This document shows, one piece after another, positions 10,303 to 43,714 of a stretch of 52,734 nt of DNA; the stretch's first letter is position 1, and each line of letters opens with the position of its first letter. This stretch comes from a virus. The notes beneath the pieces are model-generated. The model made no database searches and was not told the origin of the DNA. It was given only the letters and a program-made list of their open reading frames with translations. Location: UHGV virus genome UHGV-0124967; one strand, 5' to 3'. Position numbers and translations under genes: made by a program.

Positions 10303-10324
10303 TATAGCTAGTTTACAAAATGGC

Positions 10325-13250: not shown

Positions 13251-13303
13251 GATTTAACCTCATGCAAAAATGTGATCTGTGTATCTATTTTATACAAAAT
13301 GGC

Positions 13304-13332
13304 TTTACTTCAACGACTACATTTTGTATAAA
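13304..13332 (+). promoter_or_regulatory. putative promoter for lipoprotein moron
   Basis: TTTACT (13304-13309), 17 bp, TG-n-TATAAA (13324-13332); partner inverted copy at 13291-13302 faces tape measure. Confidence 0.45.
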
Positions 13333-28536: not shown

Positions 28537-28617
28537 TTTTCTACCCTCCGCATCGTTCTCTCTTCAGCTTCTTTATAACAAAATGGCACTGCCGAAACAA
28601 TGCCATTTCGTAAACCT

Positions 28618-28633
28618 TGTGATACAGATCACA
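28618..28633. promoter_or_regulatory. CRP-consensus-like palindrome TGTGA-N6-TCACA
   Basis: TGTGATACAGATCACA; adjacent to inverted repeat AAATGGCA...TGCCATTT (28582-28608). Confidence 0.35.
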
Positions 28634-28634
28634 T

Positions 28635-28859
28635 TTACGTTTCTTCCGTAAAAGTAACCTTCATCGCCCCATCCGAACTACGGACAACATAACGACCAAT
28701 ACCGCCTAGCGGCCCTGCATACCATAAGTGACCGTAAGTGTCAGTCACGACGATAAACGGAAATTTAGGAGACAATCCCATCGGTTTTTCAGCCGTATAC
28801 TGTGCGCCTTCTTCAAAACAGCCTAATTTCGATTCGTTACACGTTAAAATCATTTTCAT
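28635..28859 (-). CDS. small protein, paralogue family member A (74 aa)
   Basis: Shares F..G.IY...D..G.LW.F-type pattern with the next three genes. Confidence 0.55.
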   Translation of the reverse strand: MKMILTCNESKLGCFEEGAQYTAEKPMGLSPKFPFIVVTDTYGHLWYAGPLGGIGRYVVRSSDGAMKVTFTEET

Positions 28860-34595: not shown

Positions 34596-34754
34596 AATGC
34601 TCCCTCCCTTTAAGGTGATTTCTACGCATTTCAGCGCTGCCGGATTTTTAAAGAGCATTTCGTTTGCTTGAAGTATACAAAATGGATACACGTAAACAAG
34701 ACGAAAAGCGCCATTATGTGACCTGTATCACACAATGACGCCATTTTGTAAACT

Positions 34755-37293: not shown

Positions 37294-37477
37294 CCCAATC
37301 CGGCGCGGCAGTCAAGCAAAAACCAATGAATGCGCTCACAGCCAATAAAGCGCGGGCTGCAAAAAGAATATTCCCAATGTCGTTAAATTCAGGCAGCGAC
37401 CACGTAATAAACATACCCCCCAGCATAATAACACCGATAACAGTCAGGGCCGCCAGGAAAACAAAAAGCGTAGCCAA
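37280..37477 (-). CDS. putative membrane protein; start uncertain (TTG 37477 or ATG 37426)
   Basis: Hydrophobic throughout. Confidence 0.35.
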   Translation of the reverse strand: MATLFVFLAALTVIGVIMLGGMFITWSLPEFNDIGNILFAARALLAVSAFIGFCLTAAPDWDDTW

Positions 37478-37518
37478 AAGCCACGCCCCCCAACCAGTTA
37501 AAAAAGCTCTTAAGCATT

Positions 37519-37722
37519 TTAAACGTCCTCAATTACCCCGCCTTTCACGCGCTCTTTAATATCCCATACGTGAGGCTTGCACATTTCTTGATAGTAGTGA
37601 TCCGGCCTGCTGCCGAAATACCATTTGCCATCCATATAAAAATAAACGCCAGAAAAATTTCCTGGTGCTGCCTTTGTCGCTGCTTCTGGAATTTTCCATT
37701 CTTTATAGTGTTTAAACTTCAT
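37519..37722 (-). CDS. hypothetical protein, 67 aa
   Basis: Track ORF with ATG. Confidence 0.45.
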   Translation of the reverse strand: MKFKHYKEWKIPEAATKAAPGNFSGVYFYMDGKWYFGSRPDHYYQEMCKPHVWDIKERVKGGVIEDV

Positions 37723-40922: not shown

Positions 40923-41563
40923 TAACCCATCTCCCCGTTAAGCTCTGATTTTCTGATCTGGTATACATCGCTCGCTTTCTGTCGTTGCTCTGAGTTTTCA
41001 GGTAATAACTTCCAGCATTTAGCAAAAATATCTTTAAGCGCTTTTTCGTCCTGCGCTTTCGCTGCCGCATCACAGAAACGTGCTAATACTTCATCAGGAT
41101 TTGGCGGCGCTTTCTGCTGCTGCGGTTGTTGTTTTGGTGGGTTTTTCTGTTGTCGCGGCTGCTGGCCTGTCTGCTTCGCGTAATCATCAGTATCAGGATC
41201 GCGAGCATCATCTATGCAGAATAAACCGTTCAAAGCATATTTCCGCGCGTAACTTGATGTTGCTCCTGTTAGCTGGCTGGCGTCCATACCCTTCTTGCTT
41301 TCTTCCTCCCTGGCATAAGCAGTTACCGCTATTACGTCTTCACCGTCGCTTAGCGTCGCCGTGGCTTTCACATAATAGCGATTGCCGATCAGGACAATTT
41401 CATCACTAACAGTCAGTGTGATATTTTGAAGCAGTGGTTTAACCGCCTCTAAAATATCCTCCGCAGACCTGTAATTATAGCCACCGAAGTTATTACGCTG
41501 ATTTTTCGGCGCATTCAGCGTTTGCTGAATCGTCCATAGTTTTTTATGTAACTCTGTTTTCAC
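40922..41563 (-). CDS. erf: Erf-family single-strand annealing protein
   Basis: GTG start with AAGGAG RBS; closely resembles P22 Erf as recalled (LNAPKNQ...KATATLSDGE...ASQLTGATSSYARKYALNGLF). Confidence 0.9.
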   Translation of the reverse strand: MKTELHKKLWTIQQTLNAPKNQRNNFGGYNYRSAEDILEAVKPLLQNITLTVSDEIVLIGNRYYVKATATLSDGEDVIAVTAYAREEESKKGMDASQLTGATSSYARKYALNGLFCIDDARDPDTDDYAKQTGQQPRQQKNPPKQQPQQQKAPPNPDEVLARFCDAAAKAQDEKALKDIFAKCWKLLPENSEQRQKASDVYQIRKSELNGEMG

Positions 41564-41712
41564 CCTTTAATCTCCTTCGCTGTTAACACTATGTATAAGG
41601 CTTTATTCGCGGCGCTCCACATTTCGGCATCATGAAGCATTTCCGCTACCGCCAGTTTGAATTGAAGCGCCAGAATAACCATAATGTCACCTCCGAACGT
41701 TTACATTTTGTA

Positions 41713-42003
41713 TTAATGGTAGCGGACTTTATCCAGGGGTTTTTCCCCTAAATGGCGTGGTTGCGTTGCGTGGTAGTAGCTGCCGCTTTCATTTTCCGTA
41801 TACCATTTTACTGATCCTTTGCGACGTTCTTTAATGCTATTTGGTTTGCATCTTTCCTCGTTTGCAAATCGAATAGCTTTATCCACATTGTCTGTTTTAT
41901 TGATTGCAGGTGATGATTTTCTTTCGTTTTCTCTTTTTATCCTTCTGCGTTCCCTGGCATTCATTTTGCTATCACATTTGCCATATATAATTGTAACGCT
42001 CAT
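41713..42003 (-). CDS. basic protein with arginine-rich motif; possible N-like antiterminator
   Basis: 96 aa; GGAG RBS; NARERRRIKRENERK near N-terminus; first gene of the leftward operon after CI. Confidence 0.5.
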   Translation of the reverse strand: MSVTIIYGKCDSKMNARERRRIKRENERKSSPAINKTDNVDKAIRFANEERCKPNSIKERRKGSVKWYTENESGSYYHATQPRHLGEKPLDKVRYH

Positions 42004-42465
42004 AATCTGATCTCCGTATATCCTTGATAAAAATTAATAAAAATCATCTTCGTTAATTGCCGCACTTCCAGCGGCTGACCAGATTGTTAATGAGCGGCTT
42101 AACATCTTTCAACTAATCCCGCAATCATCGCCGTTCCCGGCGTGACCTTGCTCACTCCAAGCAAGCTGACTCGTCGCCTTGCGTGCGGTTTCGTGGGGGA
42201 TGTAACGCTTTAAACACCCCATGCGCCTTGTTATCAGTGCCGCTTTCGGTCCCCCATCGGGGAGTTACTCCACGGTTGACAAGGTGTTAAGCCTGATTTT
42301 TAAAGTGCCAGGAAGTTGCTTTTGTTACCTGCGACCTTCCTTTGACTCGCAATATACGCCCCGTAAAACATCGAGTCAATCCATTTTGTATACTTTTTTA
42401 AAATATTTTATATGCTATTGATATTTAAACAATAAATAACGTTTTCTGTTTACGTTTTGGCGTTT

Positions 42466-42496
42466 TCCAGGCAAAGAAAAGCCGCCATCCGGCGGC
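42466..42496 (-). terminator. intrinsic terminator after the repressor gene
   Basis: GCCGCC-ATCC-GGCGGC followed on minus strand by TTTTCTTTG, 7 nt after CI stop. Confidence 0.55.
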
Positions 42497-42502
42497 TAAT
42501 GT

Positions 42503-43150
42503 TTATGGCAGGTTTACGATCTTCGCATCAACCACCACGCCTATAATTTTTGATTCTGGATTCATAGGGATTGGCGGATACAGCGGATTGAGCGAACGTA
42601 AAAGCCTTTGACCTCCATCAATAATCAACTGTTTAAACGTCGGTATCTGCCATTCCTCAAGCTGGGCTATAACCAGTTTGCCGTCAATAGCTGGCGCGTG
42701 CGGGTCAACAAGTATCATCGTCCCCGCCGGGATGCTCAACCCCTGCGGCGCGTTCATTGATTCACCTTTGGCAACCAGCCAGTAACTGTCATCTGAACAA
42801 ATAACGCTAGTCGTAACGTGTCGTAATGCTGAACGCCTTGCGTCATCCATATTGTTTACTGTGTCCTTCCAGTCAATAACCGGGTAACTACCTAAATCAC
42901 GCGGCGGCACAGCCTGAAGTGTATTAGAAACAGAATCATCAATGACCATACCATCATGTGTAACAGTGAACTGCCGACGACCAAGCTCTCGCATAATCCG
43001 CGCAATATCTTCAAGATTTGGCTCGCGGCGACCGTTCAGCCAGTGTGACAGGTCGCCTTTAGTTATCCCCATGCGATCCGCTAGTGAATCCTGGCTCATG
43101 CCCTGCGCCCGCATGAGCTGCTTTGCTAAGTCATACCATTTTGTTTTCAT
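42503..43150 (-). CDS. CI-like repressor (HTH plus S24 LexA-like self-cleaving domain)
   Basis: 215 aa; N-terminal HTH (QDSLADRMGITKGDLSHWLNGRR), C-terminal GESM...K pattern. Confidence 0.85.
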   Translation of the reverse strand: MKTKWYDLAKQLMRAQGMSQDSLADRMGITKGDLSHWLNGRREPNLEDIARIMRELGRRQFTVTHDGMVIDDSVSNTLQAVPPRDLGSYPVIDWKDTVNNMDDARRSALRHVTTSVICSDDSYWLVAKGESMNAPQGLSIPAGTMILVDPHAPAIDGKLVIAQLEEWQIPTFKQLIIDGGQRLLRSLNPLYPPIPMNPESKIIGVVVDAKIVNLP

Positions 43151-43275: not shown

Positions 43276-43456
43276 GAAAAAGATAACGGAAGGCACAAAA
43301 AGGCACTTACCTTAAGCTCTTTAAAAATCCGGTGTCGCTGCGAAGCGAAAAACAAATATCACGCAACGGCGGGATCTGTTGAGCGGTCAGTCACTGCTAT
43401 CTAATGCTAATGGGATGCCCGCCCGCGCGTTCACTCTAACCATAGGAGAAAACACG

Positions 43457-43714
43457 ATGAGTATGCACATGATGAATGAAGTATGGAACGTAAAACTTAA
43501 CAGCCCGATTCAAAAACTTGTCTTAATGGCTCTGGCTGAAAAGGCAGATAACAAAGGACGGGTACATGATGCATCACGCAAAGAAGTAGCCGCAATGTGT
43601 GAACTTCCTGTTCATACGGTACATGATGCTTTCGCCGCGTTAATGGATAAAGGATTTGTTTGTCGTCTTGATGCATTCAGTGATGTCTATGTAGTGATGT
43701 TGCCGGAGGGATGA
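43457..43714 (+). CDS. HTH DNA-binding protein, 85 aa (first gene of rightward operon)
   Basis: ATG 43457 with AGGAG RBS (track ORF begins upstream at 43379); could be a Cro-like regulator or N-terminal module of the initiator. Confidence 0.55.
   Translation: MSMHMMNEVWNVKLNSPIQKLVLMALAEKADNKGRVHDASRKEVAAMCELPVHTVHDAFAALMDKGFVCRLDAFSDVYVVMLPEG

Follow-up and report, generated by a model that had tools for sequence, protein, structure and literature searches.

What is the product of the 96-codon open reading frame at positions 41713..42003 (minus strand) of the 52,734-nucleotide viral genome analysed here (the whole stretch is referred to as the window), and does it act on the early transcripts of its phage in the manner of the N protein of phage lambda? 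A preliminary description, based on the letters of the DNA, had proposed that it is an N-like antiterminator and had forecast where its nut sites should lie. We conclude, with a probability that we estimate at about 0.9, that this reading frame encodes an N-type processive antiterminator of a temperate coliphage or prophage of the mEp021 group (mEpimmI). The original proposal finds support in the 93% identity of the product to Gp17 of phage mEp021, in its profile homology to N proteins, and in the presence of three nut sites in the window.

The gene is a listed open reading frame with an ATG start codon, and a ribosome-binding site, GGAG (42012..42015, minus strand), can be read from the sequence 8 nt before it. 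The product is a 96-residue basic protein, as had been described, with a pI of 9.96 and 24 lysine and arginine residues against 13 aspartate and glutamate residues, and the arginine-rich motif noted near its N-terminus corresponds to NARERRRIKRENERK at residues 15–29. This motif is followed by a conserved helix with the pattern D-x-V-x-K-A-I (residues ~38–44) and by a C-terminal motif, KWY..E.SG.Y.HA.Q.R..GE.PL, that is conserved in the Gp17 family; the C-terminus of this family is distinctive and strongly conserved, and ends in ...PLDKVRYH. The structural model of the protein contains only two helices (residues 16–30 and 36–49), with the remainder modeled as low-confidence coil (mean pLDDT of 57), and helix 16–30, which holds the arginine-rich motif, is the part modeled with the highest confidence. 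Low confidence outside of the helices is to be expected of an N-like protein that is largely disordered, and the model is consistent with a small basic protein that would be mostly disordered and in which an arginine-rich helix is predicted to bind boxB RNA.

Judged by its sequence, the gene is the ortholog of mEp021 gp17. The two proteins are of equal length and are identical at 89 of 96 residues (93%; mEp021_17), with L14M among the seven substitutions that separate them, and the product of MagusPhagus (XNS39445.1), which carries the GenBank name "anti-termination protein N-like protein", is 100% identical to that of the window. The gene is found in only seven phages (mEp021, 010, 013, 044, 515, 554, and MagusPhagus) among 50,697 phage records. 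At the nucleotide level, the gp17 region is 90–93% identical to the six "mEp" coliphages (mEp021, 010, 013, 044, 515, and 554) and 97% identical to MagusPhagus, and the early half of the window is an mEp021-type genome, with ~86–93% DNA identity to mEp021 over the early region. IMG/VR contributes 42 related sequences that are 88–100% identical, apart from one at 69%, and a protein collection contains a narrow Escherichia coli family of gp17-like proteins with 60–98% identity.

The mEp phages of immunity group I are Nus-dependent, non-lambdoid, temperate coliphages (PMC11893012; Front Microbiol 2025). According to the same article, which cites Valencia-Toxqui et al. 2023 (Arch Virol 168:92), Gp17 was shown experimentally to be a lambda-N-like early antiterminator of mEp021, and it acts at three nut sites designated nutR1, nutR2, and nutL. 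Arginines 17, 19, 20, and 24 of Gp17 are fully conserved and R21 is nearly so (PMC11893012), and all five (R17, R19, R20, R21, and R24) are present in the protein of the window. Antitermination, Nus dependence, and the use of three nut sites are properties taken from the literature on a 93%-identical protein and not from this sequence. The gene order of mEp021 (repressor, terminator, promoter, nut site, gp17, kil-like ORF, erf, and ssb) is identical to that of the window, the repressors are 93% identical, and the three nut sites are at the described positions; the window represents another isolate or prophage, with no functional differences apparent.

As in mEp021, the gene is situated 3′ of a Rep021-type repressor gene and its terminator, and 5′ of erf and ssb. 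The repressor gene (42503..43150, minus strand) is the ortholog of Rep021 and codes for a CI-type protein with HTH_3 and Peptidase_S24 domains that is 93% identical to mEp021_15. That this upstream cI gene ends in its own terminator had been pointed out previously, and the intrinsic terminator is indeed present at 42472..42497 (minus strand), where AGCCGCCGGATGGCGGCT is followed by a T-run; it corresponds to TERM_1 of mEp021, and the hairpin with its T-run is also reported at 42497..42480. The best promoter-like site in the interval (TTGACT-17-TATATT; 42351..42379, minus strand) is within a block that is conserved across the relatives. Since the repressor terminator lies upstream and this promoter-like site lies between, no substantial gene precedes gp17 in the leftward early operon, and its earlier placement as the first gene is essentially right; from the promoter-like site at 42379..42351 the leader is ~340 nt long. 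A permissive Rfam scan of the leader returned only two sub-threshold small RNA matches, both centred on the repressor terminator, which were dismissed, and there were no matches to Rfam at gathering thresholds in the whole window. Immediately downstream of gp17 is a 40-residue reading frame (41560..41682, minus strand) that resembles lambda Kil weakly, at a score below threshold (PF06301, E 2.4e-4); in lambda and P22, too, kil genes are found close to N.

The nut sites were located by searching for the boxA sequence CGCTCTTTA with one mismatch allowed, which gave three matches on the early-transcription strands at sensible places. In all three, boxA is separated by ~11–12 nt from a boxB consisting of a short hairpin with a GC stem and a GNRA-type loop. 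The first site is in the gp17 leader (42059..42096, minus strand), and has boxA CGCTCATTA at 42096..42088, a 12-nt spacer, and boxB GCCGC-UGGAAGU-GCGGC at 42075..42059. The second is in the rightward leader (43315..43348, plus strand), with boxA AGCTCTTTA at 43315-43323 and boxB UCGCU-GCGA-AGCGA, which has a GNRA tetraloop, at 43335-43348. The third is at 34624..34657 (minus strand), with boxA TGCTCTTTA at 34657..34649 and boxB GCGC-UGAAAU-GCGU at 34637..34624. The preliminary description had suggested that the leaders be searched for boxA followed by a short hairpin, had predicted one nut-like site within 42004-42480 and another to the right of 43240, and had held that a lack of such sites would count against an N protein; the first two sites fall where they were forecast, and the third was absent from that prediction. 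Cognate nut sites are thus present on the early transcripts, in positions that are promoter-proximal to terminators, and the three are placed as they are in the mEpimmI Gp17 system.

The third site is located 3′ of an open reading frame matching the mEp021 cytosine methyltransferase and of TERM_4, and is followed by ninG and Q. TERM_4 corresponds in the window to a terminator-like hairpin with a T-run directly upstream of the site (34707..34742, minus strand), and further candidate terminators are present at 37665..37649 and 37492..37462. PMC11893012 places nutR1 5′ of gp17, nutL across the repressor gene with transcription in the opposite direction, and nutR2 3′ of the cytosine-methyltransferase gene. 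The gp17-leader site is probably the equivalent of nutR1, the rightward-leader site is probably that of nutL, and the third is probably that of nutR2; the position of the third site fits both the description in PMC11893012 and the mEp021 annotation, and the correspondence is one of position. The sequence GCTCTTTAAAAATCCGG is exactly common to the rightward and third sites, in agreement with the published statement that, among the nut sites, nutL resembles nutR2 most closely (PMC11893012). The first rightward gene (43458..43714, plus strand), 5′ of which the rightward nut site is located, codes for an 85-residue HTH protein that is MarR-like in mEp021. The nutR of lambda and that of P22 come after cro, and the arrangement in the window, with the nut site before the first rightward gene and not after cro, differs from both.

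The sites are conserved among the relatives, and the boxB stem covaries. First, they occur at equal relative positions in 44 related sequences, with the gp17-leader site present in 43 of 44, the rightward site in 41 of 44, and the third site in 42–43 of 44. Second, the hairpins vary in a manner that preserves their form. At the gp17-leader site the boxA varies among the relatives and the boxB is nearly invariant; at the rightward site the loop also occurs as GUGA and GCAA, both of which conform to GNRA; and at the third site there are compensatory changes in the stem (G.U, A-U, and C-G). Across the sites the loop variants remain of the GNRA type (GAAA, GCGA, GUGA, and GCAA), and the gp17-proximal loop is one nucleotide longer than those of the other sites. 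Third, covariation in boxB, computed on 18 distinct ungapped variants (from 27 nut variants in all), scores 0.281, compared to 0.072 for shuffled sequences (none of 500 reach 0.281) and no more than 0.058 when the partner column is slid. The four core pairs are paired in 94–100% of these 18 variants, with one occurring in five forms (U-A, G.U, A-U, C-G, and G-C) and another in which G-C is replaced by A-U in the sequence that diverges most. This covariation is supportive rather than overwhelming, as there are few independent changes among closely related phages. The minimum-energy fold of the gp17-leader nut site is the boxB hairpin; the folding energies of single nut hairpins are not distinguishable from those of shuffled sequence, as is expected for hairpins of 4–5 bp. 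The 17-mer GCTCWTTAAMAATCYGG is found at just these three places in the window and in none of 100 shuffles; as the pattern was taken from the sites themselves, this count speaks for uniqueness alone and cannot serve as an independent test.

The relationship of the protein to the N family is not evident from simple comparisons. A BLASTP comparison with lambda N gives nothing, a PDB sequence search has no N-related match, and a HMMER profile search of 1.84 billion representative proteins reached no classical N proteins, recovering only the family itself and two further proteins, P0033 and P0032. The first of these (P0033, 115 aa) is a distant Gp17 relative with 37% identity that has the N-terminus, the arginine-rich motif, and the C-terminal motif in common, and a 19-residue insertion after the arginine-rich motif; the second (P0032, 3778 aa) contains four stretches that match positions 35-82 of the Gp17 profile (E 2e-11). 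The protein has no match to PF11438 and scores below the gathering threshold of the Pfam family for the P22-type "N peptide" (PF25694; 15.9 bits against a cutoff of 27.9, E 0.019), to which it is aligned in register from the N-terminus. Lambda N itself scores only 16.4 bits on PF25694, and the sub-threshold score reflects the narrowness of the Pfam models and not exclusion from the wider N family.

Comparisons of profiles are more informative. A full-length match to PHROG 271 ("anti-termination protein N-like") is obtained with the gp17-like protein (E 1.3e-13) as well as with lambda N (E 4e-23). An hhalign comparison of the Gp17 family with the P22 gp24-type N family has a probability of 92% (E 6e-7) over residues 2–49, an alignment that takes in the N-terminus, the arginine-rich motif, and the D-x-V-x-K-A-I motif. 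Direct comparison with the lambda N clade aligns the arginine-rich motif only, with a probability of 15%. A large subfamily of N proteins in Salmonella prophages (P0166, P0184, P0230, P0243, and their relatives) is mosaic, in that the N-terminal two thirds are of the P22 gp24 type and the C-terminus (...YY.DANPLGNKIHAVQ...KSIPLI) is of the lambda N type, and it connects Gp17 with P22 N and lambda N when profiles are compared. The Gp17 family matches this mosaic N over residues 3–90 (probability 94%, E 1.3e-7), and the mosaic N matches lambda N over residues 2–107 (probability 97%, E 1.4e-11). By way of the mosaic proteins, the Gp17 C-terminus (KWY..E.SG.Y.HA.Q....GE.PL) lines up with the W-Y...G...Q...P-L pattern of lambda N, and the C-terminal part of lambda N is its RNA polymerase-binding region. 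The link from Gp17 to lambda N is remote and transitive, yet it spans the whole protein, and these alignments indicate homology to bona fide N proteins that extends beyond the arginine cluster. An alignment with N proteins had been put forward as a check on the original proposal, with homology to a different family as grounds for abandoning it; the profiles lead to P22-type N (E 6e-7 to 1e-7) and, transitively, to lambda N.

Among the classical systems, that of P22 offers many points of resemblance. P22 gp24 and the window protein have the N-terminus MTVI.YGK in common (MTV-ITYGKSTFAGNAKTRR compared to MSVTIIYGKCDSKMNARERR), an arginine-rich motif of the form NA[KR].RR..[KR]R that is equally far from the start, and the D-x-V-x-K-A-I motif. 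The P22 boxA is CGCTCTTTA, P22 nutR reads CGCTCTTTACCAATCTGAAC-CGCCGACAACGCGG, and its boxA and spacer (CGCTCTTTACCAATCTGAAC) match those of the gp17-proximal site (CGCTCATTAACAATCTGGTC) at 16 of 20 positions; similarly, the boxB of P22 nutL is GCGCUGACAAAGCGC, and the window has GCGCUGAAAUGCGU. There are also differences. P22 gp24 has ~20 residues between the arginine-rich motif and DRVTKAI (ICNIIDSIFGCDAPDASQEV) that have no counterpart in the gp17-like protein, and the C-terminal third differs, with that of the gp17-like protein resembling the lambda-type C-terminus. P22 has GNRA-like pentaloops, whereas two of the three boxB hairpins in the window have plain GNRA tetraloops, and P22 has two nut sites where the window has three, as already published for this group.

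Lambda N is alike in role and map position, its arginine-rich motif aligns with that of the window protein (MNARERRRIKRENERKS against MDAQTRRRERRAEKQAQ), and lambda nutL reads CGCTCTTAAAAATTAA-GCCCUGAAGAAGGGC where the window sites read GCTCTTTAAAAATCCGG followed by the hairpin. However, the two proteins have no pairwise similarity, the gp17-like protein has a 14-residue N-terminal extension preceding the arginine-rich motif, and there is no tryptophan at the position of W18 of lambda N. The backbone of the phage in the window is also non-lambdoid (PMC11893012), in contrast to that of lambda.

Several other explanations need to be weighed against an N-type antiterminator acting at three nut sites. 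Arginine-rich stretches of low complexity are common, and the lack of N proteins outside of the family itself in the HMMER search of 1.84 billion representatives, together with a PDB sequence search without a relevant match, could be taken to indicate an unrelated small basic protein, such as a DNA-binding or nucleoid-type protein, with an arginine cluster that is N-like by chance. The alignment with P22-type N profiles nonetheless spans residues 3-90, well beyond the arginines, and includes the N-terminal MTVI.YGK motif of P22 gp24; the order of repressor, promoter, nut site, and gene is the one in which N is found in lambda and P22; and there are both cognate nut sites and a function reported for Gp17 (PMC11893012). 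The full-length profile alignment and the synteny effectively rule out a chance resemblance. A more specific alternative is offered by Nun of phage HK022, which is an N-family protein with an arginine-rich motif, encoded next to the repressor region at the map position of N. The nut RNA on which Nun terminates transcription is foreign, and antitermination in HK022 itself depends on put RNA. In favour of a Nun-like exclusion factor, which would bind the boxB RNA of a rival phage and halt or end transcription there rather than antiterminate on its own transcripts, are the weak direct match to lambda N and the distinctive, strongly conserved C-terminus (...PLDKVRYH). Such a role is very unlikely here, because the early transcripts of this phage carry three cognate nut sites that are conserved and followed by terminators, which a Nun-type phage does not need; moreover, the C-terminus aligns with the RNA polymerase-binding C-terminus of N-type proteins, and antitermination by the Gp17 ortholog is reported in PMC11893012.

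The number of working sites can be questioned separately from the identity of the protein. If the product is an N-like antiterminator, only the leader-proximal and rightward sites might be functional, with the third (34657) being a relic or belonging to a separate promoter, in place of a role in re-loading polymerases that come from the leftward early promoter. The terminator-like hairpin and a conserved promoter-like element (TTGTT-N16-TATACT) are directly upstream of the third site, so that transcripts could start there independently. However, conservation is greatest at the third site, and it is counted among the three targets of Gp17 in PMC11893012, and we consider its exclusion from the system to be improbable. 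The upstream hairpin itself (34742..34707) contains a perfect palindrome, TGTGA-N6-TCACA, and could be read as a CRP site rather than as a terminator. Across the relatives its longer stem is conserved, its loop is hypervariable, and a T-run follows, and these features favour the terminator.

The gp17 leader contains a further element, a structured insertion of 214 nt (42088..42301, minus strand) located inside the boxA of the gp17-proximal nut site. A degenerate boxA copy, GGCACTTTAAAAATCAGG (42309..42292), flanks it upstream, and the functional-looking boxA CGCTCATTA downstream. Of the 44 related sequences, 34, the window included, have the insertion and the other 10 lack it; these short-leader relatives have a single intact boxA ~45 nt after the promoter. 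The long leader folds more stably than shuffled sequence (z = -3.7), and the ends of the insertion pair with each other. In E. coli the insertion is present in 31 of 5426 complete genomes, in one copy each and without an annotated feature. Within it is a candidate open reading frame of 37 codons (42223..42110, minus strand; MGCLKRYIPHETARKATSQLAWSEQGHAGNGDDCGIS), which corresponds to gp16 of mEp021, is not called by PGAP, and is missing from the 10 of 44 relatives with short leaders. The insertion could conceivably be a regulatory RNA module through which Gp17 synthesis or nut function is adjusted, such as a leader-peptide cassette, a small RNA, or a target of RNase III, or else an insertion that targets boxA, although we regard these suggestions as tentative and rather unlikely.

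A short repeated sequence is also associated with the early control regions. The 13-mer CCATTTTGTAWAC has 21 matches in the window when up to two mismatches are permitted, compared to 3.9 expected, and exact copies are located at 10311 (minus), 34673 (minus), 34741 (plus), 42381 (plus), 43225 (plus), and 46824 (plus). Each of the three nut sites has, upstream of it, a promoter-like element with an exact copy next to it, and the copy at 42381-42393 (CCATTTTGTATAC) abuts the leftward promoter-like site. Upstream of the third nut site, at 34673..34753 (minus strand), an inverted pair of the 13-mer brackets the hairpin with the CRP-like palindrome and its T-run, and the conserved promoter-like TTGTT-N16-TATACT follows the hairpin. 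Related modules, in which a 13-mer pair is accompanied by TGTGATACAGATCACA, are present near 13290-13331 and 28560-28640. The 13-mer may be an operator or a candidate site for another regulator; the operators of the repressor are not defined in PMC11893012.

The manner in which these elements could operate together is as follows. Once repression is lifted, RNA polymerase would start from two early promoters that diverge on either side of the repressor gene, and each early transcript would bear a nut site, with a boxA resembling GCTCTTTA, ~11–12 nt of spacer, and a boxB hairpin with a GC stem of 4–5 bp and a GNRA-type loop. The arginine-rich helix (residues 15–29) would bind boxB on the nascent RNA and boxA would recruit the host factors NusB and NusE, and the tethered protein, acting through its conserved C-terminal part with NusA and NusG, would render the polymerase resistant to termination. 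Leftward read-through would extend into erf, ssb, and the methylase genes, and then past the third nut site into ninG and Q; rightward read-through of terminators would reach the replication genes. This would be the standard N mechanism placed in a non-lambdoid phage. The window itself provides the gene, its identity with Gp17, the profile homology to N, the three conserved nut sites with covarying stems, and the terminator-like hairpins downstream; the individual molecular contacts are carried over by analogy with the N proteins of lambda and P22.

The system of Gp17 and three nut sites in mEp021-type phages is already known, having been published in 2023 and 2025. Its identification in this genome confirms that an N-type antiterminator can be recognised correctly, and the places of its nut sites forecast, by reading raw sequence. 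To the published account are added base-level coordinates of the three nut sites in this genome, the description of boxB as GNRA-capped hairpins with compensatory stem changes, a chain of profile homology that leads from Gp17 to the P22-type and lambda-type N proteins almost end to end, and the recognition that the gp17 leader exists in short and long forms. If either reading of the 214-nt insertion were true, the insertion would represent a feature without counterpart in the N leaders of lambda or P22.
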